NCBI GenBank assembly: GCA_963705505.1
Contig: CAVPJU010000010.1
Location: forward strand, 768,001-832,000
Direction of reading: 5' to 3'
Length of the DNA: 64,000 nucleotides
DNA from: an uncultured bacterium
GTDB taxonomy: Bacteria; Desulfobacterota_D; UBA1144; Nemesobacterales; UBA2774
Shown here: piece after piece, positions 43,787 to 62,611 of the stretch
How positions within the stretch are numbered: position 1 is the first letter of the stretch
Layout: each line of letters opens with the position of its first letter
Translations under genes and position numbers: made by a program
Notes under the pieces: model-generated
Told to the model about the DNA's origin: nothing
Seen by the model: the letters and a program-made list of their open reading frames with translations, nothing else
Database searches by the model: none

Positions 43787-44788
43787 GTGTATTTGAATAA
43801 ATTTTTTAAATTCGGATTATATTTGCTGGTGCTGGCGAGTGTTCTTTACACATCGTGCGGCGGGGGTTCAAAATCCAGCAGCGAATATACGCTGCCCCAG
43901 GCTAAAAGAGACGTTAACACGGAGAGTCAGGAGCTCAACCGAAAGCTCATTCAGGAAACGTTCAGTTCAAACGTTGCAGTCGATTATCTCATAGGGCCGG
44001 GAGACCTCCTGAGTATTCAAGTGCTTGAAGCGCCGGAACTCAATACGGAAGCAAGAGTGAACTCGCAGAACACCATCTCATTCCCGCTTTTGGGGAAGGT
44101 CGATATCGGAGGACTTACAGCTCAAGAGTCGGAGCAAAAAATCCAGGAGCTTCTGACCGAAAAATATATGAATGATCCCCATGTCGTTGTATCCATAAAG
44201 GAGTTCAGGAGTCAAAGGGTAGCGGTGATAGGCAGTGTGAAAAACCCGGGGACTTATGAGCTTCTGGGTAAGGGAAACCTTCTCGACGCCCTTGCACTGG
44301 CAGGCGGATTGTCCGAAAAAGCCAGTCAGGTCGCGTATGTGTCCCGCAAGAACAAAGAGGGACAGGAAAAATCTGTCCAAATAGATCTCAATGAGCTGCT
44401 CGACGAAGGCAAATCGGATCTGAATATTCCTATTAATATGGGGGACGTCGTTTATATTCCTCAGGCCGGCGTAGTATACGTAGACGGAGCTGTAAACAAA
44501 CCCGGAACATTCCAAATACAGGAAAATATGACCGTCAGCCAGGCACTTACCGCGGCCGGAGGCCTCTCCAAAACGGCAGAGTCATCCGACGTGAGATTAA
44601 TAAGAAATAAAAAAGGGCAGATGCAGGTCACTCCGGTGGATCTGGATCAAATAAAAGACGGGCAAACACCGGATATAATTATAGAGGATCAGGATGTAAT
44701 AGTGGTAGGCAAGAATGCAATAAAATCCTTCTTCGATACTATCAAACTTGGATTGTTCTTCCCGCCATTCAGCGTAGGGGTTCAGTAA
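43787..44788 (+). CDS. wza: Polysaccharide export protein (OPX/Wza family, SLBB domains), lipoprotein
   Basis: Lipobox-like YTSC, DYLIGPGDLL..V poly_export motif, and two SLBB repeats (V.VIGSVKNPG; VYVDGAVNKPG). Confidence 0.88.
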   Translation: MYLNKFFKFGLYLLVLASVLYTSCGGGSKSSSEYTLPQAKRDVNTESQELNRKLIQETFSSNVAVDYLIGPGDLLSIQVLEAPELNTEARVNSQNTISFPLLGKVDIGGLTAQESEQKIQELLTEKYMNDPHVVVSIKEFRSQRVAVIGSVKNPGTYELLGKGNLLDALALAGGLSEKASQVAYVSRKNKEGQEKSVQIDLNELLDEGKSDLNIPINMGDVVYIPQAGVVYVDGAVNKPGTFQIQENMTVSQALTAAGGLSKTAESSDVRLIRNKKGQMQVTPVDLDQIKDGQTPDIIIEDQDVIVVGKNAIKSFFDTIKLGLFFPPFSVGVQ

Positions 44789-44819: not shown

Positions 44820-47186
44820 ATGGAAAATAATAGAGATAATATGATCGGAGATAACAGAGGCAGGAACCTGGTTCCGGAAAATGAGGAGAGAGCACTCCGT
44901 ACGTATCAACATGCCCCTGAGACATTAAGGGCTTACCCGGTCGAGGAAGAAAGCAGCATACACCGCTACGTGGAAGTCGTGCTGAGGCGGAAAAAAATTA
45001 TCATCGCCTTTTTTGCAATCGTGCTGATATCGACCATGATTGCCACATATTTAACAGAGCCGGAATACAAAGCAACAGCCAAATTGGAAATCTCGCTTGA
45101 AAACCCGAAAGTAGTAAACTTTGACCAGGTGGTCGAACTCGAAACCAAATCCCAAGAGTTTTATGAAACGCAGTATCTGCTCCTTAAAAGCCAGACTCTG
45201 GCGAAACAGGTAGTAGAAAAGCTCAACCTGGCCGAGAACCCGGAATTCAGCGGGAAGAACAAGAAGCCGAGCCTGATCTCAAGGGTAACGTCCAGCATCA
45301 AGGGCACGATACGAAGCACCCTAAGCGGAATAAAAAGGATGATCATCAGGCCGCCCGACATCGTACCCTCGAGCGCCGACGCGGCAATTGCCGAGATCAC
45401 CAAACAGGACGGACTCATAAACGGTTTTATCGGCAGGCTTGAAATATCGCCCGTCGGCAACTCCCGACTCGTCGAAGTAAGCTTCGTATCACACGACCGC
45501 AAGCTCGCGGCCGACGCAGTTAATACATTGAGCGATACATTCATAGACTGGATCCTCAACAGAAAACTGGACGCGACTAAACAGGGAAGGGATTTCCTGA
45601 GAAAACAGATAGAGCAGGCCCAGACAAACCTTGAACAGTCCGAAGAGAAGCTCAATGAATTCGCCAAGAGCAACGATATCGTTTCTCTGGACGAAAAGAT
45701 GAACATAACTTACCACACGTTCTCAGAACTGAACGACGCCCTGGCGAAAGCGGAGACATCGAGGCTCGAGAAGGAATCGCTTTACAAGCACGTTCAAAAC
45801 GGAAACATAGGTTCACTGCCTTTGGTGGTAAACGACCCGTATATACAGAACCTGAAGGGAGAGCAGGCTAAAGCAAATTCGGAATACAGCCAGATGAGTG
45901 CGACTTTCAAACCCGGCTACCCAAAGGTGAAGGAGCTCGGAGCCAAGGTAGCTGAATTGCAGAGGAAGATCGACGAGGCAGAAAACAGCGTAGCCGCTTC
46001 GATCAAATCCGATTATGAAGGCGCATTGCAAAAAGAAGAAACTTTAAGAGAAAGCTACCAGAAGCAGAAGACCCTTGCATCCGCACTTAACGATAAATCG
46101 ATCCAGTACAACATCTTAAAGAGGGAAGTGGAATCGAATGAAACCATTTATAACACTCTTTTACAAAGATTAAAAGAAACTGAGGTCTCTTCCGCTATCA
46201 AAGCAAGCAGCATACAGGTCGTAGATTATGCTCAAATACCCTTTATGCCGTTTAAACCCAATGTGACTTTGAATCTGCTTTTTGCCTGCATAATCGGGTT
46301 AGGCGGAGGAATTTTCCTGGCCTTTTTCATGGAGTTCTACGACAATACCATAAAGACACCCGAAGAAGTGAGGGACAAGCTGAAACTCCCGGTCCTCGGA
46401 GGGGTATTCGAATCGCATCAGACGGACGGCTTAGGTTCTCCGGTGGAGAAATCGTTCCTGCTCGACCCGAGATCCCATATTGCCGAATCATTCAGGACGA
46501 TCAGGACCTCCCTGCTCCTTTCGACCCCCGGAAAACCGCCCCGCTCGATTCTTATAACGAGCTGCTTCCCGGCGGAAGGAAAAACTACCGTTTCAATCAA
46601 TCTGGCCTCGTCTTTCGCGCAGGCCGGAAGCAAAGTCCTTCTTCTCGAGGCCGACCTCAGGCGTCCGAGAATCGGAACGGTTCTGGGGAACAACGGGAAC
46701 GGCCTCAGCAGTTACCTGACCGGCAACTCGAATCTCAGCGAGATCATATCTCAGGGGGAGATACCGAACTTATATGTACTCCCCGTCGGTCCGATACCCA
46801 TCAACCCCGCAGAGCTTCTGGGCTCAAATCACATGAAAGAGTTACTTCAGACGCTGAGCCAGGAATACGACTACATTATCGTTGACGGTCCCCCTGCATT
46901 AGGGTTTGTCGATGCCCATATCATATCCAGTCTCGTGGACGGAGTCGCAGTAGTCATAAGGGCCGGAAAAACACCCAGGAATTCGATCAGGGAGCTGATA
47001 GAGAGACTCTGGAGCCTAAAATCCAATTTCCTGGGAGTAATTGTCAACGGCATAGAACTCAATCAGAACAGTTACTACTATAAGTCTTACAATTATTACT
47101 ACGGCGAAGAGGAAGAAAAGAAAAAGCTCACAGCCGCGACGTCCGACGAGAAAAAAAGGCGGGACGATTTGGGTAAATCTTTATAA
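44820..47186 (+). CDS. wzc: Polysaccharide co-polymerase / BY-kinase (Wzc/GumC)
   Basis: Two TMs flanking a coiled-coil, ESFRTIRT, Walker A PAEGKTT, ADLRRP, VDGPP and a C-terminal Tyr cluster SYYYKSYNYYYG. Confidence 0.93.
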   Translation: MENNRDNMIGDNRGRNLVPENEERALRTYQHAPETLRAYPVEEESSIHRYVEVVLRRKKIIIAFFAIVLISTMIATYLTEPEYKATAKLEISLENPKVVNFDQVVELETKSQEFYETQYLLLKSQTLAKQVVEKLNLAENPEFSGKNKKPSLISRVTSSIKGTIRSTLSGIKRMIIRPPDIVPSSADAAIAEITKQDGLINGFIGRLEISPVGNSRLVEVSFVSHDRKLAADAVNTLSDTFIDWILNRKLDATKQGRDFLRKQIEQAQTNLEQSEEKLNEFAKSNDIVSLDEKMNITYHTFSELNDALAKAETSRLEKESLYKHVQNGNIGSLPLVVNDPYIQNLKGEQAKANSEYSQMSATFKPGYPKVKELGAKVAELQRKIDEAENSVAASIKSDYEGALQKEETLRESYQKQKTLASALNDKSIQYNILKREVESNETIYNTLLQRLKETEVSSAIKASSIQVVDYAQIPFMPFKPNVTLNLLFACIIGLGGGIFLAFFMEFYDNTIKTPEEVRDKLKLPVLGGVFESHQTDGLGSPVEKSFLLDPRSHIAESFRTIRTSLLLSTPGKPPRSILITSCFPAEGKTTVSINLASSFAQAGSKVLLLEADLRRPRIGTVLGNNGNGLSSYLTGNSNLSEIISQGEIPNLYVLPVGPIPINPAELLGSNHMKELLQTLSQEYDYIIVDGPPALGFVDAHIISSLVDGVAVVIRAGKTPRNSIRELIERLWSLKSNFLGVIVNGIELNQNSYYYKSYNYYYGEEEEKKKLTAATSDEKKRRDDLGKSL

Positions 47187-47285: not shown

Positions 47286-48512
47286 ATGAAATTTACGATA
47301 GGCTCGAGGCTTTCCCTCTATGTATCAATCCTCCTGACGATACTGATATCGTTATTTCTGGCCTGGAATTCGGCGAGGAACTGGCTCGCATACGTTTATG
47401 CGAGCGACCCGCCTCCCGAAGGATTCATGGAAGCTATCTCGATCGAGGGTGGGAATTCGGATTTCTACTTCCTGCTGGGGCAATATTATGATAATTACGA
47501 CATCTCCGCTCCACGAGACCGGGTCTATAAACTGTATAGGAGCGCTCTTGAACTTAACCCGTTAAACTACAATTACTGGTACTACCTGGCCGAATTCCTT
47601 TCGGAGGAAGGCAAACGGGACAAGGCGCTATTTGCCCTTAATCAGGCTACGGAGCTATCCCCCGGCGTCGTTGCACTCAGATGGAGGGCGGGAATGCTTG
47701 CCTCGAGGCTTGGAGACGAGAAATCTCTCGCGGACAACCTCAGCCCCGTAATGGCCTTTGATCCGGAAAGGCGGAAAAAAGCTTTTATAGTCGTTTGGCA
47801 GTCACTCAGGAACGGAGATAAAATCTTAAAAATCATCCCCGAGATCGCACTCCCCGAATATTTGAATTTCCTCATAGAAACGCGGAGAATACCCGAGGCC
47901 CAAAAAGCTTTGGGGAAATTTTCAAATATCAAAGAAATCCCTGAATCTACATTCCTCAGATACGTAAGCATGTTGATCGATGAGAGCATGATTGAGAGCG
48001 CCAAACACACCTGGGTCAGCAAATTCGGAGACTGGGACGGAATCTGGAACGGTAATTTTGATAAGGGTCTCACGAACGGCGGGTTTGATTGGAATTTCAA
48101 CGACGCGCAAGGTGCGAAGATAACAATGGACAATGACACCGGCGGAAAGGGGAACTCAGTCAAGATAGAATTCGACGGAACGAACAACGTGGATTTTTAT
48201 AATTTCCGGCAACACGTTCCCGTTGAGGGAAATACACGCTACGAGCTCAGTGCGTTTATGAAAAGTCAGGATTTGTCGACGAGAAACGGCCTCTTTTGGG
48301 AAGTATATTGCCCCCGGAGTAAAGAATTAGACGCAAAAACCGAAGAAGTTCTGGGAACAACGGATTGGCATCCGGTTACCGTTACATTCCAAACACCCGA
48401 AGACTGCAATTTCCTCAGGATAGTACTGCGCCGTTCCAAAAGCGATGAAATACACGGCAATATTTCCGGGACTGTCTGGATCGATGATATAGCTTTGAAG
48501 AAAATAAACTAG
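47286..48512 (+). CDS. Membrane-anchored TPR protein with C-terminal carbohydrate-binding-like domain
   Basis: N-terminal TM, TPR-like YRSALELNP / A.ELSP segments, and a CBM4/9-like C-terminus (IWNGNF...GGFDW...GTTDW...F.TP...GTVWIDDI). Confidence 0.75.
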   Translation: MKFTIGSRLSLYVSILLTILISLFLAWNSARNWLAYVYASDPPPEGFMEAISIEGGNSDFYFLLGQYYDNYDISAPRDRVYKLYRSALELNPLNYNYWYYLAEFLSEEGKRDKALFALNQATELSPGVVALRWRAGMLASRLGDEKSLADNLSPVMAFDPERRKKAFIVVWQSLRNGDKILKIIPEIALPEYLNFLIETRRIPEAQKALGKFSNIKEIPESTFLRYVSMLIDESMIESAKHTWVSKFGDWDGIWNGNFDKGLTNGGFDWNFNDAQGAKITMDNDTGGKGNSVKIEFDGTNNVDFYNFRQHVPVEGNTRYELSAFMKSQDLSTRNGLFWEVYCPRSKELDAKTEEVLGTTDWHPVTVTFQTPEDCNFLRIVLRRSKSDEIHGNISGTVWIDDIALKKIN

Positions 48513-48528: not shown

Positions 48529-49911
48529 ATGCCCTTTATAAAAGACAAGCTAATACCTCTGATTATCAACGTCGGGATTGTGCTGATTCTAATGTCCCCT
48601 TTGCCATACGGTAATGTGGAGACATGGTCGGTATCCCTGATTGAGATAATCGCATTCCTGACATTCGGGGTCTGGTCGATCGGGGAAATACTTAAAAGAC
48701 GCATACGTATATTACAGTCGCCCTTATATCTGCCGATAGCACTCTTTTTCATCGTTATTCTGTTTCAGACAGTGGAGCTTCCGGACTCAATTCTCGATTT
48801 CATATCCCCCCATAAGGCGGAGCTGTTTCAAAACAAGAGCGCAGCGCTCCGGAATATATTCGGCGACGGCATAAAACTCTCAAATTCAATCAGTCTCTAC
48901 CCGTTCCTGACAAAAGAAAAATTACTAATATACCTTTCGTACGCCGCATTTTTCCTTATCGTTTCCAACTACATAAAAACAAGCACACAAATAAAGAGAT
49001 TCATCCGTATTGTCTTTACAATATCGATCGTGGAATCACTGATCGGACTTCTCCAGTATATCGCCAGCGGGACTAAGGTGCCGGCGTCAGGCACTTACAT
49101 CAATCCCAACCATTTCGCGGGACTGCTGATCGTAGTTATCCCTTTATTTTTAGGATACATACTATATCGTGGCACCAATAAAAATGCCGGATCAAACCGG
49201 CGGGAAGACAGAATAAAAATTCTATTTTCCGCTCAATTTCTCCTGCTGTTCGCAACGTCCCTTATGGCTATAAGCTTAATAGTCGCACAATCCCGGGGAG
49301 CGATATTCTCGTTTGTGGTCTCAATTATAATCTTTTATATATTGATCTCCCGCAATAAAAAAAGCGGTTCGATAAAATTATTTCTGGGCATATTTTTTGC
49401 GATTGTAATCCTCTACTCGATATGGATAGGATTGGACCCGGTAATTGAAAAATTTTCGGATACGACAAAAGAACTCCCTAATCGTACGTACATATGGAAA
49501 GATTCGCTTAACCTTATAAAAGACTTTCCTATTTTAGGCACAGGTCTAGGGAATTTTAACCTGGCTTACACGCTCTATAAAAAAGAAGCGTTTTGGCCCT
49601 ATGTCTACGACCACGCTCATAATGATTATATCGAACTTGCCGCAGAGACCGGGTTGGTAGGATTCATCTTGGTTCTATGGGCATTGGTAGCGTTTTTTAA
49701 AACCGCGTTGTCTGACGAGAGAAATTTCTCTCCGAACCGGGACCCTCTCAGGTATTATCTCTTCCTGGGGTGCCTGAGCGGGATGCTGGGTATGCTGACT
49801 CACGCTATTACAGAATTCGATTTCCAAATACCGGCTAATACGTACTACTTCGTATTCTTATTGGGACTGTCGAGCAGCATGTCGAATGTGCTAATCGGAA
49901 GGAAGAAATAA
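48529..49911 (+). CDS. O-antigen ligase family (Wzy_C) membrane protein
   Basis: Multi-TM with GTYINPNHFAG, SRGA, R..IW, FP.LGTGLG and HAHNDY motifs. Confidence 0.88.
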   Translation: MPFIKDKLIPLIINVGIVLILMSPLPYGNVETWSVSLIEIIAFLTFGVWSIGEILKRRIRILQSPLYLPIALFFIVILFQTVELPDSILDFISPHKAELFQNKSAALRNIFGDGIKLSNSISLYPFLTKEKLLIYLSYAAFFLIVSNYIKTSTQIKRFIRIVFTISIVESLIGLLQYIASGTKVPASGTYINPNHFAGLLIVVIPLFLGYILYRGTNKNAGSNRREDRIKILFSAQFLLLFATSLMAISLIVAQSRGAIFSFVVSIIIFYILISRNKKSGSIKLFLGIFFAIVILYSIWIGLDPVIEKFSDTTKELPNRTYIWKDSLNLIKDFPILGTGLGNFNLAYTLYKKEAFWPYVYDHAHNDYIELAAETGLVGFILVLWALVAFFKTALSDERNFSPNRDPLRYYLFLGCLSGMLGMLTHAITEFDFQIPANTYYFVFLLGLSSSMSNVLIGRKK

Positions 49912-49973
49912 TTAAAACGATTCGTTTCTGAACCCCTCGCAGCCGTCGGCACCCGGCTCGAACTGACCGTCTT

Positions 49974-51063
49974 CTACGATTTTGTATTTTCGGTCCTTGC
50001 CATCGTTTGCCTGTCCAAACAGTCCTTCAGCGCAAGTTCCGAAATATACCCCATATCGATCAGAATCTGCCCGACTCTTGCCGCCTTGATTTTTTTGACA
50101 TTGTAATGCCTCTTCCAGTTGATCGACCGTGATCACGTTGGCGGCGAGCATTATTTCACCCAGCAAGTAATCATTTTTATTGTTTCTGAACGCCCAATTG
50201 GCGCTTGAATTCACGAATACCTGCAAGTTCAGAAAGTCCTTCAATTTTTGTTCGGTAATATAACCCTTTTCAATCAGAATCTCCCCGACTTTCCCGCCCC
50301 ATTTCTCCTGATGCTTAAGCGCTTCCTCAAGCTGCCCTTCGTTAATAACCCCGGATTCCAGTATGACCTGTCCTATCAGCTTATCTATACGCTTTTCCTT
50401 GCTGTCCCAATGGAGTGTGAACGTATACCATATAGAAGCAAAAATAAGCTTTAAATCGAGCCAGAAGCTCTGATTATAGATATAAATCAAATCATAGCGG
50501 AGCTTGTTCCTGGGATGAGTATTATAATGTCCATGGACCTGGGCAATCCCGGTTAAGCCCGGCTTGACACGGAGCCTGTGATCAAAACCCGGGATCATTT
50601 TCCTGAACTCATTAACCAATTCCGGCCGTTCGGCTCTGGGGCCGACGAAGCTCATGTCGCCCATAAGGATATTGAATAGTTGAGGAAGTTCGTCGAGCTT
50701 CGTTTTTCTGAGGAATTTGCCGACTCTCGTGATCCTGTAATCCTTCTTATAAGCCCAGACAGGACCCGTATTGAGCTCCGCATTCTTGATCATGGAACGA
50801 AACTTGTAAATCTTAAACCTTTTCCCGTTCACACCCAATCTTGTCTGAGAGAAAACTATGGGAACTCCGTCTTCCAGATAAATAGCTACAGCGACCAAAA
50901 TCCAAACAGGCAAAGAAACTATGATACCTATAAGGGAAAACAAAACGTCGAAGGGCCTCTTTAAAATTGGCTCTCTTGTAGGGTAGGAATTATAATCCGT
51001 CAGCGAATACCTTCCGCCCAACTTGTTTATGCCGTTGCCGTAGCTTTTGAACATCTTTTCCAA
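49974..51063 (-). CDS. Priming phosphoglycosyl transferase (Bac_transf, PglC/WcaJ-like) fused to two MshEN-like domains, with a +1 frameshift at ~50076-50079
   Basis: KRPFD, YKFRSM, DELPQL and GDMSFVGPR PGT motifs, then four 24-aa xxGxxLxxxGxIxxxxLxxxLxxQ motifs. The fourth is in the shifted frame, which ends at TAG 49974-49976. The uncorrected ORF runs to 49912. Confidence 0.85.
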
Positions 51064-51541: not shown

Positions 51542-52459
51542 ATGAACCATATCACAAAGAAAGTAAAGAATTACCCGGAGAAAACTGACAAAAAACCCAA
51601 TATGGGTAATCCCGAGCGGGACAATGTCGGTTTTTCGAAAATAGAACCCTTTGCAGTACGCGAGCCCAGCGTAGGGGTTTCATTAAGACTTAGAGAGCTC
51701 CTGGAATATCACGAGCTTATTTATTTCCTTGTTTGGCGGGACCTTAAAGTACGGTACAAGCAAACCGCACTGGGTGTGGCCTGGGTAGCTATTCAACCGT
51801 TAATGACTATGATTGTGTTTACCATATTTTTCGGGAATCTCGCAAAAGTCCCTTCCGACGGACTGCCCTACCCTGTTTTTAGCTTTACGGCCCTATTGCC
51901 GTGGCAGCTCTTTGCTAACGCCTTAAACACCTCAAGCAACAGCCTTGTCAATAACCGCGACTTAATAACTAAACTCTATTTCCCCCGGTTAATTATTCCG
52001 TTGGCGTCGATAATAGCGGGATTTGTAGATTTTTGTATCGCATTCCTGGTGCTTATAGCCATGATAATCTATTATGGAATAGTCCCGACATCAGCCGTTT
52101 TTACGCTTCCCTTATTCATACTGTTGACAATCGCGACGTCAACAGCCGTAAGCCTTTGGCTTTCGGCGCTAAATGTAGAATATAGGGACGTACGTTACAC
52201 AATTCCTTTCCTGACCCAATTCTGGCTCTTCCTCACGCCTATCGCCTATCCAAGCAATTTAGTGCCCGAGAAATGGCGTATCCTATACGGATTAAACCCG
52301 ATGGCGGGCGTTGTCGAGGGTTTCAGGTGGGCTTTACTCGGAAAAACAAACGTTAGCTGGACCATAATTACGGTATCAGTGCTTATAGTTATAATTCTGC
52401 TTGTCGGCGGTTTGGTTTACTTCAGACGCATGGAAAGAACATTCGCGGATATAGTTTAA
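51542..52459 (+). CDS. wzm: ABC-2 polysaccharide exporter permease
   Basis: WRDLKVRYKQT.LG..W..IQPL, KLYFPR, YRDVRY and LNPMAGVVEGFR motifs. Confidence 0.92.
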   Translation: MNHITKKVKNYPEKTDKKPNMGNPERDNVGFSKIEPFAVREPSVGVSLRLRELLEYHELIYFLVWRDLKVRYKQTALGVAWVAIQPLMTMIVFTIFFGNLAKVPSDGLPYPVFSFTALLPWQLFANALNTSSNSLVNNRDLITKLYFPRLIIPLASIIAGFVDFCIAFLVLIAMIIYYGIVPTSAVFTLPLFILLTIATSTAVSLWLSALNVEYRDVRYTIPFLTQFWLFLTPIAYPSNLVPEKWRILYGLNPMAGVVEGFRWALLGKTNVSWTIITVSVLIVIILLVGGLVYFRRMERTFADIV

Positions 52460-52460
52460 T

Positions 52461-53825
52461 ATGAACGGAATCGCAATAAAAGTCAGAGATATAGGAAAAG
52501 AATACAGGATAGGGGAGAGAAATGAATTCAGGACTATCCGGGACAGTATTTCAACCTTCGCCACAAAAATTTTCAAAAGACTAATTTCCGGTATTGACGG
52601 AAAATCCGTAAGGAAAAATAATTCCGCGGGTATCGGAGCTCCGCCTTCCGGTGGAAATTATCAATCCGACGTGTCGCAGATCCCGGGTACAACTGACAAG
52701 ATAAATGATGAAAGAACCGATAATTACATATGGTCACTCAGGAAGGTGTCTTTCGATGTCCGAAACGGGGAAATCGTCGGAATAATCGGCCGCAATGGCG
52801 CGGGAAAGAGCACGCTGCTGAAAATTATAGCGGGTATAACCGAACCTACGGAAGGAAGGATAGATATATACGGCAGAATCGCTTCGCTGCTTGAAGTCGG
52901 AACAGGATTTCACCTCGAGCTAACGGGGAGAGAAAATATCTATTTAAACGGGGCGCTGCTTGGAATGAAAAAACGGGAAATAGACCGTAAATTCGATGAG
53001 ATAGTAGAGTTCTCGGAAGTTCATCAGTTTATCGACACGCCCGTTAAATTTTACTCCTCGGGCATGCGGGTGCGTCTGGGTTTCTCCGTGGCAGCACACC
53101 TCGAGCCCGAGATTCTGCTAATTGACGAAGCTCTTGCGGTAGGAGACGCAGCGTTCCAGAAAAAGTGTTTGGGCAAGCTGAACAATGTAGCTACCTCGGA
53201 AGGAAGGACCGTTATATTCGTCAGCCACGACATGGCGGCCATCCTGTCATTATGCCAGAGATCTATTCTATTGGACAGCGGACGAATGATCGCCGAAGGC
53301 ACCACTCATGAAGTAGTACAGCAGTACATGCAATCAATGAGTTCAACCTATGAAATCCCGCTTGACCAGAGAATGGATCGGACGGGAGACGGCAGTATCC
53401 TCGTTACATCACTTCAAATAGAGAATTCCGAGGGCAGAATACCTATTACACCGAGCTGTAAACTAAAAATCAAAATCGGTTATCGAAGCGAAAACCAAGT
53501 TCGCTTCCCTCAGTTCGTAGTTAATATTAAAGACTTTAGAACACACACGACTATACTCCGCCTGGATAGCGAAATGCTAAATGGTCTGCCTGAAACTCTT
53601 CCTTCCGCGGGAAGTGTGTCGTGCGTGACTGACAAAATATACCTGTCACCGGGACGATGCTACGTGGATGTCGGTATCAGAAAAGGGAAATCAACCGCCG
53701 ATTACATTGAACATGCGGGATACTTCGATATCGAGACAGAAGACCTATACGGATCCGGAAAGATACCGTCACGTGACCAGGCTATATACCTCCTAAAATA
53801 CAGATGGCTGGTTGAAAATGTTTAA
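52461..53825 (+). CDS. wzt: ABC polysaccharide exporter ATPase with C-terminal Wzt-C carbohydrate-binding domain
   Basis: GRNGAGKST, YSSGM.VRL.F and DEALAVGD..FQ.KC motifs, plus a beta-rich C-terminal extension (..LSPGRCYV..). Confidence 0.93.
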   Translation: MNGIAIKVRDIGKEYRIGERNEFRTIRDSISTFATKIFKRLISGIDGKSVRKNNSAGIGAPPSGGNYQSDVSQIPGTTDKINDERTDNYIWSLRKVSFDVRNGEIVGIIGRNGAGKSTLLKIIAGITEPTEGRIDIYGRIASLLEVGTGFHLELTGRENIYLNGALLGMKKREIDRKFDEIVEFSEVHQFIDTPVKFYSSGMRVRLGFSVAAHLEPEILLIDEALAVGDAAFQKKCLGKLNNVATSEGRTVIFVSHDMAAILSLCQRSILLDSGRMIAEGTTHEVVQQYMQSMSSTYEIPLDQRMDRTGDGSILVTSLQIENSEGRIPITPSCKLKIKIGYRSENQVRFPQFVVNIKDFRTHTTILRLDSEMLNGLPETLPSAGSVSCVTDKIYLSPGRCYVDVGIRKGKSTADYIEHAGYFDIETEDLYGSGKIPSRDQAIYLLKYRWLVENV

Positions 53826-53980
53826 ATGATACCATTTAACAAGCGATTGATTGACGTTAACTAGTTGCAACCATTAAAATAAGTCTAAACATACGAGGTG
53901 AATTTAATAAAGGGTATTTACACACTTTTTAAATTATTATAGATTTGCTTTAGCCAAATCAAAAAGTGAGGCATAAGAAT

Positions 53981-54724
53981 ATGAAGCGTGATCAGGTGTT
54001 TATTGAACAAAAGGGAAACATCAATGATTTTGAGTTCAATGACCAGGTGGTGGAAGTCTTCGATGATATGGTAAACCGGAGCGTTCCATTCTATTCGGAG
54101 CAGCAAAGGATGATAAATGAAATCGGGAAAGTTTTTTCAACCAGCGGCACAAATATATATGATCTAGGGTGCGCTACAGCTACCACTCTCATTAATCTTT
54201 GTCAAGACTCCGACCCGTCGATCCGCCTGATAGGATTTGACAATTCCAAGCCAATGATTGAGAGGGCTCAACAGAAAATATCAGAGCATGGATATGAGAA
54301 TCGAATCGAAGTGCGTTATGGTGACTTCAATGGAGATCTCGACTCTATCGATTTGAATAACGCCAGTCTGGTATTGATGTGCTGGACTCTGCAATTTGTG
54401 CGTCCTTTAAGAAGAGACAAACTCATTAAAAAAATTTACGATTCACTCAGTAAAGGCGGTGCGTTGCTGATTACTGAAAAAATACTCACAAACCACTCAC
54501 TCCTAAATCGCTATTTTATAAAATATTATTATGATTATAAGACGCGAAAAGGATATTCAACAGAAGAAATTGTAAATAAGAGGGAGGCACTGGAAAACAT
54601 TTTGGTCCCGTATAGAGTTGAAGAAAATTTCGAATTGTTGAGGCGGAATGGATTCGAAACCGTAGATACTTTTTTTCAATGGTACAATTTTGCCGGATTT
54701 ATTTGCATTAAAGACCCGGGTTAG
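53981..54724 (+). CDS. cmoA: Carboxy-S-adenosyl-L-methionine synthase CmoA homolog
   Basis: RDQVF...DFEFNDQVVEVFDDMVNRSVPFY, YDLGC, DNSKPM, NAS...TLQF, EK, KGYS.EEI..KREALEN and FFQWYNF match the CmoA pattern as I recall it along the whole length. Confidence 0.88.
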   Translation: MKRDQVFIEQKGNINDFEFNDQVVEVFDDMVNRSVPFYSEQQRMINEIGKVFSTSGTNIYDLGCATATTLINLCQDSDPSIRLIGFDNSKPMIERAQQKISEHGYENRIEVRYGDFNGDLDSIDLNNASLVLMCWTLQFVRPLRRDKLIKKIYDSLSKGGALLITEKILTNHSLLNRYFIKYYYDYKTRKGYSTEEIVNKREALENILVPYRVEENFELLRRNGFETVDTFFQWYNFAGFICIKDPG

Positions 54725-54744
54725 TCATTTAAATCTACTTACCA

Positions 54745-55503
54745 ATGATTAACGAAAAACCTTTTAATTTGATTACTGGCAATATGAACATTCATACATT
54801 AATAAAGCGAATAGCCATATATATAAGTGGTTTGATTTGTTACAGATGGGATAGATACTACAAATTACCGAGAAGTCTAAATCCTATAAGTCATAAATTC
54901 GGCTTTGACAGAGGATTGCCCATCGACCGCTATTATACTGAAAAATTTATACGCGCAAACGCCAATGATATACATGGCCGTGTTCTTGAAATTGGAGACG
55001 ACTACTACACTAAAAAGTTCGGAACCGATCTTATTACCAAAAGCGATGTATTGCATGTCGTCGATGGTAATCCTCAGGCAACGATCATCGCTGATTTGAC
55101 TAAGGCTGATAATATTCCTTCCGATACCTTTGACTGTATAATATTCACTCAAACCCTTCAAATGATTTATGATACGCACTCCGCTTTAAAAAACCTCCAC
55201 CGAATATTGAAACCCGGGGGCGTATTGCTAGTTACTACTCACGGAATATGCAAAGTGGGGAGATGGGAGGGTGAGGACGACTGGGGTAAATACTGGCATT
55301 TCACTTCTCAAGCAATAAAAAAGATGTTTGATACACACTTCATGACCGGGAACTATAAAATCGAGGTATATGGAAACGTACTCTCCGCGATCTCTTATCT
55401 GCACGGACTCTCGTCAAATGAACTAACAATAAATGAGTTAGATTATTCGGATCGTGAGTATGAGGTTTTAATTGCCGTAAGAGCAGTAAAACCTGCCGTA
55501 TAA
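54745..55503 (+). CDS. Class I SAM-dependent methyltransferase of the type found in glycan loci
   Basis: FGFDRGLPIDRYY, GRVLEIGD, FDCIIFTQTL, RILKPGGVLL, YWHFT and YGNV motifs. Confidence 0.85.
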   Translation: MINEKPFNLITGNMNIHTLIKRIAIYISGLICYRWDRYYKLPRSLNPISHKFGFDRGLPIDRYYTEKFIRANANDIHGRVLEIGDDYYTKKFGTDLITKSDVLHVVDGNPQATIIADLTKADNIPSDTFDCIIFTQTLQMIYDTHSALKNLHRILKPGGVLLVTTHGICKVGRWEGEDDWGKYWHFTSQAIKKMFDTHFMTGNYKIEVYGNVLSAISYLHGLSSNELTINELDYSDREYEVLIAVRAVKPAV

Positions 55504-55818
55504 ATCAATATTAATAATACGATCGAGTAAAAAATGTTAAAACTAAATAACAAGCATCCGATCACACTTCAAAGGAATCATGATAAATTTTCAAAGAAAA
55601 CTTTTAGAAAGAAATAAATCGCTATTTCGGAGTTAGATTCAGGAATATCTAGACTAATCTCGCTCCAATGCGATTCTTTAAAGGAGTAATAGCAGATAAT
55701 CCCAAATAATATAGAGTTGTAGCCGCTCCGGCCCGAACTATGTAATGTTCGATACTGTGTTATTTTTTTAGCTGGTGTAATATTTATATTCAGACTGTTA
55801 GGAGACATGTAAATACAA

Positions 55819-56631
55819 ATGAGGCGGAATCCGGATTTTTCCATACCCATTTTAATGTATCATCAGGTAAGCGACGATCCTCATCCAAATTTTCTGAAAT
55901 TTACTGTGACGACAAAGGGTTTTGAATCACAGATGAAGACCCTGAAACTCCTCGGCTATAAACCCATAGATTTCAGCCAACTAGCAAGATATAAGGAAGG
56001 AAAGGACCGACTGCCAAAAAGACCCGTCATAATCACATTTGACGACGGGTTTCAGGAAGCGGTGGATAATGCTGTTCCAATATTAAATTCTTGCGGATTC
56101 ACTGCGGTGTTTTATATCACAACCGATTATATCGGGAAAAAAAGCGGCTGGATGATTCCTGAAACATCAATCGAATTCCAGGTTATAGATTGGCCCACCG
56201 TAATTCATTTGGATTCACGCGGATATGAAGTCGGAGCTCACAGTATGACGCATCCTCATATGGATGCCATATCGTTGGAAGCCTGCTCAAAAGAGCTCCG
56301 CGGATCGAAAGAGGCTATTGAAGAAGTTTTGGGCCACGAAGTACGGCACATGGCATACCCTCACGGCTCGTTTAACGACGATGTTTTGAAATTAGCGCAC
56401 GAAACAGGCTATCAAACGTCCTGTTCATGCGAAATCGCCATTGCGCATTCCGGGAATGACCTTCTGGCCCTGCCGAGAGTCAATATCGAGGCCAGTGACT
56501 CCTTGATCGATTTTATATTCAAGCTGCACAAGGCCAGAACACCTGACGAAATTATGCTGATCACGATGAATAGCGTGAAAAGCAAGATCCCGGGAAGATT
56601 GAGGAGATTTATTAAAAAATTTGTTAATTGA
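55819..56631 (+). CDS. Polysaccharide deacetylase (CE4/NodB)
   Basis: PILMYHQV, ITFDDG, GAHSMTH and AYPHG motifs. Confidence 0.92.
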   Translation: MRRNPDFSIPILMYHQVSDDPHPNFLKFTVTTKGFESQMKTLKLLGYKPIDFSQLARYKEGKDRLPKRPVIITFDDGFQEAVDNAVPILNSCGFTAVFYITTDYIGKKSGWMIPETSIEFQVIDWPTVIHLDSRGYEVGAHSMTHPHMDAISLEACSKELRGSKEAIEEVLGHEVRHMAYPHGSFNDDVLKLAHETGYQTSCSCEIAIAHSGNDLLALPRVNIEASDSLIDFIFKLHKARTPDEIMLITMNSVKSKIPGRLRRFIKKFVN

Positions 56632-56657
56632 GGCCGTACGGTAACGACAATATTATT

Positions 56658-57668
56658 ATGATCAAAGTGAGTGTAATAATACCCACATACCAAAGAAAAC
56701 AATCCGTATTACGTCTTCTCGATGCACTTAGTTCGCAAACTTTTCCGTCAAACGAATTCGAGGTCATAATTTCGATCGACGGTTCGACAGACGGTACGAA
56801 GGAAGCGGTCGATAATTACAAAACTCCTTTCGAACTAGGGTCTATTTGGGAAAGTAACGCAGGTAAATCGTCTGCATGCAATAAGGGAATTAAAGACGCC
56901 CGGGGAGAATTGTTAATCATATTGGATGACGACATGGAGCCGTCTCCCGGACTAGTGCAAGCTCATTATACCGCACATCAGGGCCATACGAAAACCGGTG
57001 TAATAGGGGCCGCCCCTATAATAGTAGAAGAAAATTCACCGCTTGTTGTCCGTTATATCGCCGATAAGTTCAATTCTCATATAAAAAAAATATCAGAACC
57101 GGGTTTTAACCTAAGGATTTGGGACTTTTACGGCGGGAATTTCTCTATAAGAAGAAAGCTCATGCTGGACGTCGGTCTATTTGACGAAAACTTTAAAGTT
57201 TACGGGTACGAGGACGTCGAGCTCGTAAACCGGCTGCTAAAGGCGGGTGTAAAAATAATATTCAGCCCGGATGCTTTATGCGTTCAGCATTATGAGGATG
57301 ATCTCAAAGGCCAGGGGTACAAAACAATCAATTCGGGGAACAATGCTGTTCAACTAGTCAGTTCTCAACCGGAGACATTTACTGAACTCAAGCTCACCGA
57401 ATATAACTTAACGGGATGGAAGTGGCGCTCACTTCGTCTAACTTTAATATGGTTCAGTATCTTGATCCCCGTTACTACGGACATAGTAATCTCTTTAATT
57501 AACCTGTTTGAGAAATCAAACCCGAAGATGCATAGGAGGCTTTATTCCTTAGCCATGGATTACTTCTTTTGGCTCGGGGTGTGGACAGCTTTGAGACGTG
57601 ATAAAAACAAGCAACTCCGCTCCAAAATAAAATCCTTCAAGAAACCCCAAAAATGTCCAACACCGTAG
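56658..57668 (+). CDS. Glycosyltransferase family 2
   Basis: VSVIIPTYQR, DGSTD, LDDD and GLFDENF..YG.ED motifs. Confidence 0.92.
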   Translation: MIKVSVIIPTYQRKQSVLRLLDALSSQTFPSNEFEVIISIDGSTDGTKEAVDNYKTPFELGSIWESNAGKSSACNKGIKDARGELLIILDDDMEPSPGLVQAHYTAHQGHTKTGVIGAAPIIVEENSPLVVRYIADKFNSHIKKISEPGFNLRIWDFYGGNFSIRRKLMLDVGLFDENFKVYGYEDVELVNRLLKAGVKIIFSPDALCVQHYEDDLKGQGYKTINSGNNAVQLVSSQPETFTELKLTEYNLTGWKWRSLRLTLIWFSILIPVTTDIVISLINLFEKSNPKMHRRLYSLAMDYFFWLGVWTALRRDKNKQLRSKIKSFKKPQKCPTP

Positions 57669-58789
57669 TTTACTATATAGACAGCAATAATTTCGGCGGC
57701 GCGGAACAGGTGTTACTCAACCTCGTGAGTAAACTCGACCGAAATTCGTGGCGCCCGATCCTCGCATATCACCAGAGCCCCGGCATTTCCTCGTTTGTAG
57801 CAGCCGTAGAAAACCTGGACGTGGATACCATTTCTATGCCTGAGATTCGGAGCTATAAAGATATCAGGAACATTCTACAATTCGCAAAGAAACTGAAAAC
57901 CATACGTCCCGCTATCTTTCATGCAAATCTAAGCTGGCCGCTTTCATGTTCTTATGGCATTATCGCCGCATACCTGGCCGGGGTTAAGACTATTTTAGCC
58001 ACCCAGCACCTCTATTCGGATATGAACTCTCGACGGAGCCAACTAGAACAAAAGCTAATATCCTATTTCGTGGACAACTATATTGCGGTATCATTCGATG
58101 TAGCCAGACAGCTCAAAGAAATAATCACTTCCGAAAATAAAGTAAAAGTTGTGCACAACGGAATCATATTGGGAAATTACAGTCACGTAGCAAATAACAC
58201 ACCCGATAGCGACGTTTACAGCTCCGTGAAGATGAATAGAAATAATTTTCCGATCGTGCTTACCGTAGCACGTCTCGACAAGCAAAAGGGGCACACCTAT
58301 TTACTTCAAGCCGCGAGTGATATCCCGGGGACGCTTTTTGTATTCGCCGGGGACGGTCCCGAGAGGGCGAATCTCGAAAATGAGGCGCGTGAGCTGAGTT
58401 TGACGGACAGAGTCATTTTTTTAGGAAATAGGAACGACATCCCTGCATTGCTGCGCGGATGCGATTTGTTTGTACTCCCGTCTCTCTTCGAGGGATTGCC
58501 CCTTTCCATTATTGAAGCCATGGCGGCAGGCAAACCTGTCATAGCCTCCGATATCAGGGGAGTAGACGAACTGGTAATAAATGGCAAAACAGGATACCTG
58601 GCGCCCCCGGGAGACCCTACTGCTTTAGCGGCCGCGATAAAAACCATCGTGTCGAATCCCCAATTGTCTCAAAAAATCGCATCAGCGGGAAAAACCATGG
58701 TATTCAGTGAATTCTCCGCCGATCAAATGTTAAAAGGCATAACTGAAATATACAATGACAATCTATCCCGCAGAGGATTAATAAATTAA
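57653..58789 (+). CDS. Glycosyltransferase family 4
   Basis: GGAE, VARL..QKG and PS..EGLP.SIIEAMA motifs. Confidence 0.93.
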   Translation: MSNTVVYYIDSNNFGGAEQVLLNLVSKLDRNSWRPILAYHQSPGISSFVAAVENLDVDTISMPEIRSYKDIRNILQFAKKLKTIRPAIFHANLSWPLSCSYGIIAAYLAGVKTILATQHLYSDMNSRRSQLEQKLISYFVDNYIAVSFDVARQLKEIITSENKVKVVHNGIILGNYSHVANNTPDSDVYSSVKMNRNNFPIVLTVARLDKQKGHTYLLQAASDIPGTLFVFAGDGPERANLENEARELSLTDRVIFLGNRNDIPALLRGCDLFVLPSLFEGLPLSIIEAMAAGKPVIASDIRGVDELVINGKTGYLAPPGDPTALAAAIKTIVSNPQLSQKIASAGKTMVFSEFSADQMLKGITEIYNDNLSRRGLIN

Positions 58790-58941
58790 GCAAATGGGAA
58801 ATCACAGAATTACCGAAGAGCCCATTAATATCATCATAAGCTCGGGCTCACCCTGCTTCGTCGATCGATTGGAGCAGGGCAAATCAAACCTTTTTCTTAC
58901 AGTTCTTCGTATGAAATACGAATAAGGGATTGGCGATAACA

Positions 58942-60183
58942 ATGCGCATCCTCTTTATCTCAAGCTACTTCCCCGACGACATACGTACAAAGGCTCACGG
59001 CGTCTATAAGCGGATGGGGATGTTTATAGAGGCTATAAAAGAAATAGCCTCACTGGATATGCTCTTTTATACACGTCAGGATACGCATTACTCGCCCATA
59101 CAGACGTCCGAGACGGAACGTTCGTTAAGCGAACACTGGAAAACGGATATCAGGCTGTCACTCTCGCCCATGGCGGAATACAGGAATCGAACCAAATCCG
59201 AAAAACTGACGTCCTTCGGAAAAGGCATCTTCAGTATTTTCAATCAGCATGGTTACTACGAGCTTAGCGGAGCTGAGCAGGTGCGGGCCCTTGAAGAGTG
59301 CCTCGACAGAAGGCCTGATGCGATCTTCGCACACCGGCTGCCCTCGATGTGCCCTCTGCTGCTCACGAGGAAACCCCTCCCTCCGATTTTTTTCGACTTC
59401 GACGATATTGAGCATATAGTACAGTTAAGACACATCAAACAACTAAAAAGACTCCGGTCAAAGCTCTTATATCTGCTCATTCCTGCTCTGCGTTCGGGTG
59501 AAATGGATGCAGTAAGATTAGCCACAGAGACATACGTTTGCTCCGAAAAAGACCGCGCATACCTGGAAAATAAGTTCAACCAGTCCCGTGTAATTACAGT
59601 CCCGAATACGGTATCGATTCCGGCGTTACAGCCCCCCGCAAATGAAAAGACTCTACTTTTCATCGGTTCTTATTATACGGCCAATCTGCACGCCATAGAT
59701 TTTCTCGTTAAAAAGATCTGGCCTTACGTACATCGGGAAGTCCCGGACGCAAAGCTGATTATTGCCGGAATACCCGCTGATAAGCTCGACATAGATGTCT
59801 CCGGAGCACCGGATATAGAAATCACCGGATTCGTGGACGACCTGGACGGGCTCTACGGAAGATCCCGCATTATTACCACTCCAATATTCGTCGGAGGCGG
59901 CACGCGGATAAAGATCATCGAAGCCGCGGCTTACGGGAAGCCGGTAGTATCTAGCACGATAGGAATGGAAGGGATCGATTTGTCCCCCGGAACAGAAATT
60001 CTGATACATGACAATCCGAAAGAATTTGCAGAAGAGTGTGTAAAATTGCTTCGAGACCCCGAATTGTGTAAGGAAATAGGATCGGCGGCAAGGTCAAAAG
60101 CCAGACTCCTCTATGACAGCAACTCAGTCCTCAAGTTAGTCAGAGACCGTATAATGCATAACATGAAAATATCTGCATCATAA
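58942..60183 (+). CDS. Glycosyltransferase family 4
   Basis: GGGTRIKIIEAAAYGKPVVS.TIG.EG motif. Confidence 0.9.
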   Translation: MRILFISSYFPDDIRTKAHGVYKRMGMFIEAIKEIASLDMLFYTRQDTHYSPIQTSETERSLSEHWKTDIRLSLSPMAEYRNRTKSEKLTSFGKGIFSIFNQHGYYELSGAEQVRALEECLDRRPDAIFAHRLPSMCPLLLTRKPLPPIFFDFDDIEHIVQLRHIKQLKRLRSKLLYLLIPALRSGEMDAVRLATETYVCSEKDRAYLENKFNQSRVITVPNTVSIPALQPPANEKTLLFIGSYYTANLHAIDFLVKKIWPYVHREVPDAKLIIAGIPADKLDIDVSGAPDIEITGFVDDLDGLYGRSRIITTPIFVGGGTRIKIIEAAAYGKPVVSSTIGMEGIDLSPGTEILIHDNPKEFAEECVKLLRDPELCKEIGSAARSKARLLYDSNSVLKLVRDRIMHNMKISAS

Positions 60184-60209
60184 AACATCATTCCGATGTA
60201 TAATTTTAA

Positions 60210-61134
60210 ATGATGTCGCAAGTAAGCGTTATTATTCCAACTTATAACAGAGTGAAATTACTCAATAATTCAGTCGCGAGTGTGCTTTCCCAGACTTATC
60301 GGGATTTTGAGCTGCTGGTGATAGACGACTGTTCCACAGACAATACTTCCGATTTTCTTTCCAATATCGCTGACAAAAGAGTACGCTGCATAAAAAATAC
60401 CTCGAATAAAGGAATTACCGCGACAAGGAATATTGCTCTGTCCAATGCAAACGGGAAATACATCGCATTTCTCGACGACGATGATGAATGGATGCCGGAC
60501 AAGCTGGAAAAACAGATAAATTTAATGGAAAACAGTTCTAAGGGTCTCGGCTGCATATATACCGGATGCAATCTCGTCGACGCGGAAGATAATAGATTCA
60601 ATCAAACAACTGTACCACACTATAGAATAAGGATTTTGAATGAATTACTCTTGGAGAATTTCATTATCACTTCCTCGACTCTTATAAAGGCAGACTGTTT
60701 CGAAACAGTCGGGATGTTCGATGAAAGCATGCCGTTCGCCGAGGATTATGACATGTGGATACGAATAGCTCAGGAGTTCGAATTCGATTTCGTCAGATCA
60801 CCTTTGGTAAATTACCGCATTCATCGAAATTCGATCAGTTTCAACAATAATGCGATAATAATCGGATTAGAGCGATTACTCACAAAACACGAAAAGCTAT
60901 TCCTGAAAAACAAAAAGGCTTATAGTAATCACCTGCTTAGAATCGGTGTCGCATATTGCTATACTGGGAATACCAGAGAAGGCAGGAAAGCGCTTATGAA
61001 GTGCATTGGAATATTATAAATTCGACAAAAGAGTTTATTATAATCTCCTGCTGACAATCCTTGGTGCGGACATCTTCAAAAAGCTAAAGGAGTTGAAAAA
61101 GCAGTATTTCCCTATACGTATAAAAACCGGATAA
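60210..61134 (+). CDS. Glycosyltransferase family 2, with a probable +1 frameshift near 61007-61015
   Basis: VSVIIPTYNR, DDCSTD, FLDDDD and EDYDMW motifs. The ORF stops at 61019, but the next frame continues YKFDKRVYYNLLLTILGADIFKKLKELKKQYFPIRIKTG* to 61134. Confidence 0.8.
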
Positions 61135-61195
61135 GCGGGAGGCAACGAAGTGCGGATTCTATAAAATACAGTCCGCGACTTAGGATCAGAGCGCA

Positions 61196-62611
61196 ATGCA
61201 GAGATTAAACTTCGCCGATATAAATATCCAACACATTCTGATATTCTCCGCAATAATACTCGGTGCGATCCTGGGTATTTATATAGGATATAACGGGGCT
61301 TCCAAGCTAATAATAGGAGGGTTATTAGGGGCTATATTTTTTGTTCTGAGCATTATGAGGCCGTGGATAGCAGTAGCGGCCTTCTTCGCATTAATACCTC
61401 TCGAAAACCTGTTCGTGCTGCAGGGCAGTTTGACGGCGACGCTATCCAAGCTGATGGGCGCTTATTTGATCTTTCTTGTGATCATTACAGGGTCACTAAA
61501 ATATATACACGAAGTTTTTATAAATAAAAAGGTTTTGGTGCTGGTACTATACGGCGCCCTGGGAATAATTTCGGTCGCCGTATCCAAGCACAAAGATTAC
61601 GGCATCCCGCTCTTAATAACTCTATGGCTGTATATATTCCTATATTTCGTTTTTATAATCATGATAAGGGACATTAAGACGTTATATTATGCAACCTGGG
61701 CCTTGCTGGCGGGAGGAATAATTTCAATAATCAGCCCATACTTTTTCGGATTTGGGAGTGTCGGGGGCTACGAATTAAAACGCTATGGAGGGCTATGGGG
61801 AGACCAGAACGAGTTCGCAGCTCTGCTGCTCGTATTGATTCCACTTTCCATCATGAACTTCTTTATGGACCAGAAGTTAATTTACAAAGTAATCTCGGCA
61901 ATTACTTCACTCATACTTCTGACTGGTCTAATACTAACGTATTCGAGGGGTGGATTCATATCTCTGTTCCTCATGCTTGTACTAGCAATGTTTAAAATAG
62001 TAAGTGGGAAAAACAGGACTAAGATTCTTGCAATATCCGTTCCCTGTATCATCGTAGCTTTTATAATTTTTTATTACGCCTTTGCCGATCAGTTCCTTGC
62101 CAGAATGGAAACGCTGAGTGTATTGTCAAGCAGTGAATCGGCACAAACGGAAGGCTCGCTGAAGCAGAGATATTTCTACTACTTCCAATTAGCCCCGAAA
62201 CTCTTTATGCAGCACCCTGTTTTCGGAGTCGGATTTAGGGAGTTCGTGTTTAGCAACCCTTACGGGCAGGTAACACATAATACTTATTTAGAGGTATTGG
62301 TAGGAATGGGTGTAATAGGATTCATACCTTTCGTAGCCATATTATTTCTTTCATGGAAAGACCTGAGAAGCGCTCAGAAGTTCAATAACAACAATCCGTT
62401 TGTCCATTCTTATGCAGTTGCGCTTGAGATAGGATTCCTGGGTTATCTTTTCGCCAGTATGTTCCTTACGCTGGACTTAAATAAGGTGCTTTGGATGTCG
62501 ATCGCTCTTACATCAGTAGTTCTTAATTTAAGCAGGATTTATAGTGGGACTCAGACTACGAATAAAGTCACTAATCGCAACTACAAGACATTAGGAGTAA
62601 CATACTACTAG
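61196..62611 (+). CDS. O-antigen ligase/polymerase (Wzy-like) membrane protein
   Basis: Multi-TM with G..GDQNEFA, TYSRGG, HPVFGVG and THNTYL motifs. Confidence 0.85.
   Translation: MQRLNFADINIQHILIFSAIILGAILGIYIGYNGASKLIIGGLLGAIFFVLSIMRPWIAVAAFFALIPLENLFVLQGSLTATLSKLMGAYLIFLVIITGSLKYIHEVFINKKVLVLVLYGALGIISVAVSKHKDYGIPLLITLWLYIFLYFVFIIMIRDIKTLYYATWALLAGGIISIISPYFFGFGSVGGYELKRYGGLWGDQNEFAALLLVLIPLSIMNFFMDQKLIYKVISAITSLILLTGLILTYSRGGFISLFLMLVLAMFKIVSGKNRTKILAISVPCIIVAFIIFYYAFADQFLARMETLSVLSSSESAQTEGSLKQRYFYYFQLAPKLFMQHPVFGVGFREFVFSNPYGQVTHNTYLEVLVGMGVIGFIPFVAILFLSWKDLRSAQKFNNNNPFVHSYAVALEIGFLGYLFASMFLTLDLNKVLWMSIALTSVVLNLSRIYSGTQTTNKVTNRNYKTLGVTYY

Follow-up and report, generated by a model that had tools for sequence, protein, structure and literature searches.

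The window, a stretch of 64,000 nucleotides from one contig of an uncultured bacterium, carries a polysaccharide locus with a gene for a priming glycosyl-phosphate transferase (PGT) in its middle. A wza-wzc-TPR/CBM-wzy series runs toward this gene and a wzm-wzt pair followed by a variable block of transferase genes runs away from it, so that the locus holds both Wzy_C and ABC exporter genes (Table 1). No Rfam match was found between positions 40000 and 64000, and the predicted promoters (7 against 4.2 ± 2.0 by chance) and terminators (2 against 1.4 ± 1.1) around the PGT gene are near chance. Just upstream of wza, in all family loci read, lies a gene for a probable secreted protein of about 270 aa that belongs to no Pfam family (42863-43678, plus strand); in the assembly it is split by a frameshift near 43261, which two runs contradict. 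Upstream of the locus, here and in most family loci read, a 428-aa protein with a weak C-terminal Xre/MbcA/ParS-like match is encoded (41293-42579, plus strand). Within the tailoring block, a GT2 gene (60210-61125, plus strand) has a probable frameshift near 60950-61007, where a homologue continues in another frame.

Table 1. Features of the polysaccharide locus; positions are counted from the first letter of the window.
Feature	Position	Strand	Remarks
wza-like polysaccharide export lipoprotein	43787..44788	+	PF02563, SLBB; synteny
wzc-like co-polymerase / tyrosine kinase	44820..47186	+	Wzz, GNVR, AAA_31; synteny
TPR + carbohydrate-binding-module-like protein	47286..48512	+	domain matches; synteny
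Wzy_C gene (polymerase or ligase)	48529..49911	+	convergent on PGT gene; one border of priming slot
monoPGT-(MshEN_N)2 gene	49974..51054	-	ATG 51054 probable start, TTG 51063 possible; extra base near 50078-50080 in assembly
MshEN_N unit 2 (24+5+24)	50007..50166	-	motif 3 has Asn at the Gly10 turn; motif 4 in another frame here
+1 base, very likely assembly indel	50076..50080	-	absent from contigs of runs X1, X2
MshEN_N unit 1 (24+5+24)	50221..50379	-	position 1 is Leu and Lys
small monotopic PGT catalytic domain (PF02397; PglC/WbaP fold)	50419..50961	-	KFR, DELPQ, GPR, PGLTG intact
wzm-wzt ABC exporter	51542..53825	+	divergent from PGT gene; other border of slot
variable tailoring block: 2 methyltransferases, deacetylase, GT2 x3, GT4 x2, second Wzy_C	53966..63926	+	

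As assembled, the reading frame of the PGT gene extends from 51063 to 49912 on the minus strand and comprises the catalytic domain and the first three of four motifs in a C-terminal tail; its probable start Met at 51054 is shared with P0001, a homologue of 98% identity. The first-pass annotation had proposed a complete catalytic domain with a DELPQ dyad, and this was borne out: Bac_transf (PF02397) matches aa 35-215 (E-value of 2.3e-65, 219.9 bits against a cut-off of 27, profile positions 1-178 of 179), and the dyad motif lies at 50694-50680. An AlphaFold2 model was made of the intact P0001 (41-row alignment, mean pLDDT 67.7, pTM 0.51), and Foldseek matched its core with PglC (8E37, E 6e-14) and also with WbaP (8T53). 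The Asp-Glu dyad, KFR and GPR are invariant across the 41 aligned sequences, the core being aligned to PglC. Domain content, fold, conservation and locus are best explained if the product is the priming enzyme of a surface-polysaccharide locus, predicted to transfer a sugar 1-phosphate to undecaprenyl phosphate. It has PF02397, the fold, the dyad and the re-entrant helix in common with small monotopic PGTs (PglC, the WbaP catalytic domain) but adds a non-catalytic, predicted ligand-sensing tail, and it falls outside the small, large and bifunctional PGT classes as these are defined in PMC11626204. The same genome has one PF00953 gene and one other monoPGT, which is untailed and stands at the end of a second wza/wzc locus. 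That second wza/wzc/wzy locus (L219-L220; G000:C7:1-34000) ends with an aminotransferase, the untailed PGT and a 639-aa probable dehydratase, the type of cassette that fills the priming slot in two related genomes (G098 and G100).

The tail had been described as four 24-residue motifs in two 24+5+24 units, and the analysis of ORFs and frames, a phmmer search and the predicted fold all uphold this arrangement. Motifs 1-3 are in frame and start at 50379, 50292 and 50166 (minus strand); motif 4 (RVGQIL...CLDRQ) is in another frame, ends at 50007 and precedes a stop at 49976-49974. A strict 24-residue pattern matched 4 times in the window, 5 times in the whole genome and never in any of 10 residue shuffles (5.76 million six-frame genome residues). 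Searched against solved structures with phmmer, the tail hit PilF (E 5e-14) and MshE (5HTL, E 6e-8). A structure prediction had also been suggested, and in the P0001 model the tail is a four-helix bundle that superposes on 5HTL with an rmsd of 0.8 Å over 57 columns (Foldseek E weak, 0.012); a tail modeled from the WecA-type form of relatives, described below, gave 0.9 Å over 54 columns (Foldseek E weak, 0.31). These matches support the MshEN-type identity of the tail. Of the two profile matches expected in the first-pass annotation, that to PF02397 was obtained, but a profile search with PF05157 (MshEN) gave no match in the window PGT or in its relatives searched. In the PilB of the same genome, PF05157 covers aa 68-155, while the ligand-binding motifs occupy aa 16-67 of the same frame. 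Since the profile starts only after the ligand-binding motifs, its absence from the PGT is no refutation. The alpha/beta subdomain MshEN_C is absent after the tail motifs; hence, the tail consists of bare MshEN_N units instead of a full MshEN domain. Two other assignments were not taken up: FumaraseC_C matched under the cut-off, and so did DUF4388 in the window ORF and in P0001, though it appears in the precomputed annotations that accompany the homologue listing.

Motif 4 was said to become readable only after removal of one base, and sequencing data agree. Runs X1-X4 were compared over 42800-52500, of which X1 and X2 cover the site and X3 and X4 have zero depth there; their strains may differ from the source. 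A 278-nt contig of X1 lacks one base at 50080 and has 2 other differences, and a 1789-nt contig of X2, which belongs to a study other than that of X1, lacks one base at 50078 and has 74 differences. All four motifs are in frame in P0001. Comparison with the proteins of four relatives shows that the frame also breaks elsewhere in the window, once at about 43230-43261 and once at about 60950-61007; X1 and X4 contradict the former break. An error of the assembly is very likely the source of the additional base near 50078-50080.

Conservation was assessed in 31 monoPGT and 20 WecA-type two-unit proteins taken from best-match listings (204 motif copies), and the 24+5+24 arrangement is present in all 51. 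Gly3 and Gln24 occur in 204/204 copies; because the pattern used to find motifs 1 and 3 requires these residues, while motifs 2 and 4 were placed by a fixed offset, the unbiased count is 102/102 (motifs 2 and 4). Leu17 is found in 203/204 and Leu21 in 200/204 copies, the remainder being Ile. In the window, all four motifs have Gly3, Leu17, Leu21 and Gln24; position 1 reads L, K, L, R and position 2 reads I, V, L, V in motifs 1-4, and position 10 of motif 3 is Asn (the strict consensus has Leu2 and Gly10). Ile or Val is frequent at position 2 of the tail motifs, and Gly10 of motif 3 is kept in 12/31 monoPGT tails and 0/20 WecA tails. The latter also have Ile/Val at position 1 of motif 1 and Trp at position 1 of motif 4, which is outside the published extended consensus, and seven of the 20 have Thr at position 2 of motif 2. 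The distance from DELP to motif 1 is 105 aa in 31/31 monoPGT two-unit proteins, and the linker between the units measures 16-21 aa. In six of seven pairs, the dN/dS of the tail is 0.04-0.09 and equals that of the catalytic parts (the seventh is saturated), which indicates purifying selection on the tail, also after the swap of the catalytic fold described below.

Each MshEN_N unit of the tail, which would be cytoplasmic, is strongly predicted to bind one molecule of the biofilm signal c-di-GMP, probably with high affinity. The first-pass annotation had cautioned that Leu or Lys in place of the first Arg might leave binding weak or lost; published data reverse this expectation, and we rejected it. 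GSPII-B of PilF has Lys and Leu at position 1, as the PGT tail does, and binds with a KD of 6 nM, which is 2 nM for K167L and 150 nM for K167R; the extended consensus at this position is R/K/L (PMC11731258). Binding is likelier than the caveat allowed because Lys and Leu raise the affinity in PilF and because Gly3 and Gln24 are invariant. In MshE, changes of Arg9, Asp12 and Gln32 cost at most fivefold, loss of Gly11 abolishes binding and the leucine clusters have a more than tenfold effect; the isolated four-helix MshEN_N binds c-di-GMP at 0.35 µM, and non-binders lose residues such as the Gly3/Gln24 contacts (PMC5013675). MshE (5HTL) and PilF GSPII-B agree with the PGT tail in the 24+5+24 layout, the four-helix bundle (rmsd 0.8-0.9 Å) and Gly3/Leu17/Leu21/Gln24. 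The PGT tail differs from MshE and PilF in that it is doubled and C-terminal on a PGT, not N-terminal on an ATPase, in the common Ile at position 2 and in the unconserved Gly10 of motif 3. Counting against binding are the loss of this Gly10, Ile/Val at position 2 and an extension of helix 1 that possibly occludes the site; in PilF, GSPII-A has near-consensus motifs and does not bind, its stabilized helix 1 extension blocking the ligand (PMC12002112). Four small non-ATPase proteins with full MshEN domains (L174, L175, L177, L179) also have a first motif starting with Leu, which suggests that this variant is common in the lineage.

Similar proteins were searched for in databases and related genomes, as the first-pass annotation had advised. 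Among the best 120 of 6719 homologues, 41 have such motifs, namely 31 with two units, eight with one unit and two with the motifs N-terminal on a VanZ-PGT. Names among the relatives are ‘Candidatus Dadabacteria’, ‘Thermodesulfobacteriota’, ‘bacterium HR37’ and ‘Deltaproteobacteria’, and judging from these names the lineage carrying the architecture is probably Ca. Dadabacteria. A profile of the tail, applied to 120 genomes of the phylum, detected the two-unit tail in 16, always on PGTs; single MshEN_N units were also present on pilus-type ATPases and small MshEN proteins. When proteins were searched with the tail only (142 candidates), 25/25 matches were PGTs. Of 24 metagenome loci, 13 were strong and all of these PGTs (9 monotopic, 4 WecA), some of them from duplicates of genomes already counted; the other 11 contained unrelated MshEN-like proteins or no ORF with the motif. 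A whole-library profile search was clustered at 50% identity, and three of the 150 top-ranking clusters contained MshEN_N (P0027, P0071, P0110), hence the architecture looks narrow, although distant tailed PGTs could rank below 150. Tailed PGTs thus recur in relatives within a narrow, uncultured lineage. A contig scan with generic PGT patterns returned at least 80 loci, none of those listed with a tailed PGT, and is uninformative on distribution. A tree of the cores (quick method, with long-branch warnings) contains many untailed close PGT cores and has MshEN tails on at least 3 core subclades, but is too weak to count origins.

The position between wzy and wzm is an exchangeable priming slot. 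Of 33 family genomes surveyed, 17 have an orthologous wzy (at least 49% identity) and one contig ends there, which leaves 16 readable loci (slot adjacency was read from coordinates in G090 and G099). The slot holds a monoPGT with the tail in nine loci, a WecA-type enzyme with the same tail in five, and in two (G098, G100) an untailed cassette of a PglC-like PGT, an aminotransferase and a dehydratase; the locus, therefore, works without a tail. The WecA-type enzyme has PF00953, the MraY fold and the DD, NxxDGxDG and His-rich loop motifs in common with the polytopic PGTs WecA/TagO, from which it differs by the two-unit tail and by Asn in place of the Asp of VFMGD. In a tail tree of 49 rows (root placed with six divergent monoPGT tails; two WecA proteins excluded as partial), the WecA tails form one clade (100/99) inside the monoPGT tails. 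The closest WecA relatives without a tail have 50-62% identity; where an organism is named, it is alphaproteobacterial. Trees of the flanking wzc, wzy and wzm (12 genomes each) reject a clade of the WecA genomes (AU p 2.6e-4, 4.3e-5 and 2.2e-3); each requires 3 changes of the slot, compared with 1 on the tail tree. Because the tails form one clade while the flanking trees reject one, the fused gene has moved between lineages as an allele; the simplest history is that an imported WecA acquired the tail once, in frame. The Asn is present in 20/20 tailed WecA proteins, aligns with the Asp of VFMGD in MraY and gives the motif FLGN; the other 100 sequences listed have Asp in 89 cases and Asn in 1, and the pattern was unmatched in 10. 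We take Asp252 of DPAGT1 to be the equivalent residue. As Asp252Asn raised the activity of DPAGT1 5-fold (PMC6218659), the reading of tailed WecA as an enzyme killed by this exchange was not adopted, and by analogy it need not be dead.

Receptor domains of other kinds and in other positions were also found on PGTs. P0042, whose core matches at 61% identity over 196 residues, carries PilZ at the position of the tail (30 bits, cut-off 22.5) with both binding motifs, RxxxR and NxSxxG; its nearest relatives are mostly without PilZ. P0042 alone was counted as a PilZ fusion because P0053 scores 21.8 against the same cut-off and fails the motif pattern, its second motif being altered. Both candidates fall in a core subclade in which one protein bears the name Ca. 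Aminicenantes. In P0061, P0110 and L121:9167-10525 (G005), N-terminal MshEN_N-like motifs with a lengthened spacer are followed by a VanZ-like part and a monoPGT, putatively a second arrangement of an MshEN_N-like receptor on a priming enzyme. GGDEF matches, counted as presence, number 5 in the source genome and occur in 20/20 genomes with a tailed PGT and in 55/101 genomes of the order overall; genomes without a tailed PGT have GGDEF genes as well.

The odds slightly favor, in our view, that c-di-GMP binding to the tail switches the priming reaction, most likely on; the direction is suggested by analogy with NfrB (PMC8669469). The same receptors on a structurally unrelated enzyme in relatives suggest that the polysaccharide pathway is switched at its first reaction. 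PGTs draw on a small pool of undecaprenyl phosphate that is shared with peptidoglycan, and the lipid carrier would be committed to the glycan only at high levels of c-di-GMP. The coupling of binding to the reaction is the weakest step of the proposal: without ligand, the linker of fixed length would form one continuous helix with helix 1 of unit 1. The P0001 model has a single helix (216-234) that connects the PGT domain with unit 1; it is uncertain because of the pTM of 0.51 and a pLDDT under 50 at residues 217-225. It is nevertheless a plausible lever, since in PilF GSPII-B the first turn of helix 1 has to be unwound by c-di-GMP (PMC11731258): the ligand would have to do the same here and, thereby, free the tail or reposition it at the membrane face. 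Unit 2, behind the variable linker, may act as a second site or sharpen the threshold.

The most far-reaching reading, at a probability of roughly 0.45, is that a portable tandem MshEN_N directly gates the priming of undecaprenyl phosphate on both unrelated PGT superfamilies and that PilZ fusions are convergent. The invariant 105-aa spacing from the dyad to unit 1 suggests rigid coupling, and the PilZ domain of P0042 at the same position of a related core is a further hint of c-di-GMP control. Retention of the tail across the swap of the catalytic fold supports gating, but docking or oligomerization would explain it equally well. Against gating, the fold swap is a single event, a docking surface common to both unrelated folds is difficult to imagine, 2/16 loci are untailed, the lineage is narrow and uncultured, and the helix 1 extension may block binding.

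Less probable, though the strongest of the alternatives, is that the tail binds c-di-GMP and acts through assembly, i.e., by ligand-dependent dimerization, by bringing the enzyme to Wzc/Wzy or a local diguanylate cyclase, or by shielding it from proteolysis. The pathway would then still be controlled by c-di-GMP, and the activity of the purified enzyme would be unchanged. A tail on two unrelated folds suits such a fold-independent mechanism, and the monoPGT model has no confident packing of tail on core; moreover, EpsW activates EpsZ by promoting its dimer (PMC12802240) and NfrB is paired with a local cyclase (PMC8669469). The fixed spacing speaks for rigid coupling instead, and no GGDEF gene was seen among the 20 ORFs scanned in the polysaccharide locus of the window. 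We regard as distinctly improbable that the tail is a structural or protein-binding four-helix module which binds c-di-GMP poorly or not at all, as do PilF GSPII-A and XpsE, or favors another dinucleotide, WecA having acquired it because a recombination breakpoint fell within the gene. GSPII-A is indeed near consensus yet non-binding (PMC12002112), the linker helix is predicted to continue into unit 1, all WecA tails can be traced to one fusion event, and two loci do without the tail. However, Gly3 and the polar ligand contact Gln24 are invariant here, whereas non-binders lose such residues (PMC5013675), the C-terminal subdomain that could occlude the site is absent, purifying selection persists after the swap, and a close core has PilZ at the same position. 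Finally, a true frameshift of the window copy, with unit 2 destroyed, a 54-residue junk end and a one-unit or decaying allele, is very improbable: although the base is present in the assembly, one-unit forms occur naturally (P0035, P0040, P0067, P0071) and the runs lacking it may be other strains than the source, near-identical contigs from two studies are without it, the 98% homologue is intact, and two further frame breaks lie within about 11 kb, one contradicted by the runs as well.

Direct gating of a PGT would have precedents in part. NfrB of E. coli, a GT2 synthase with a C-terminal MshEN, needs c-di-GMP binding for function and is activated by it (PMC8669469). Both NfrB and the window enzyme are membrane glycan-making enzymes with a C-terminal MshEN-type receptor, but the former combines processive synthesis with a complete MshEN domain (PMC8669469), in contrast to a lipid-carrier priming PGT of a Wzy/ABC-type locus with two bare MshEN_N units; the processive GT2 catalytic domain is absent from the window enzyme, whose catalytic domain is PF02397. 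Known post-translational controls of PGTs are CapB1-CapM, phosphorylation of WcaJ, and EpsW-EpsZ (PMC12802240). EpsW-EpsZ of Myxococcus xanthus and CapB1-CapM of Staphylococcus aureus act on the initiating PGT, as predicted for the window enzyme, but their inputs come in trans (a phosphorylated response regulator and tyrosine phosphorylation, respectively), whereas a second messenger in cis is predicted here (PMC12802240). The same source calls post-translational control of such pathways poorly understood and places allosteric control by c-di-GMP in synthase pathways (PMC12802240). No report of a c-di-GMP receptor fused to a PGT was found in the literature searched, a scope that did not extend to the main survey of monoPGT fusions. 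That survey, by O'Toole et al. 2021, reportedly includes fusions with regulatory domains and could bear on novelty. A term search of PMC11626204 and PMC12564702 gave no mention of such a fusion, and neither Bac_transf, sugar transferase, VanZ nor undecaprenyl appears in the supplements of PMC5013675, except that tables set as pictures would escape. Since the Pfam MshEN profile does not detect the units, surveys of domain architecture may overlook similar fusions. Within the literature searched, each of the parts has been described, and what is new is their combination and the proposed point of control.

With a PGT and predicted high-affinity c-di-GMP receptors in one polypeptide, the question is directly testable in vitro, and two natural versions on unrelated folds are controls for each other. 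If gating is true, lipid-carrier-dependent pathways gain an allosteric c-di-GMP switch of the kind so far known for synthase pathways, and engineered glycan synthesis a transferable switch. The restriction of this architecture to an uncultured lineage sets a limit. Some further gene arrangements were observed in passing. In G097, a histidine kinase + FIST-domain gene is inserted between the tailed PGT and wzm (L115:11141-13374). A 676-aa frame in G013 (L221:10150-12177) joins a WecB-like UDP-GlcNAc 2-epimerase, a monoPGT and one MshEN_N, either as a fusion or by a lost stop codon, and P0037 and P0241 have two tandem monoPGT catalytic domains in one chain.
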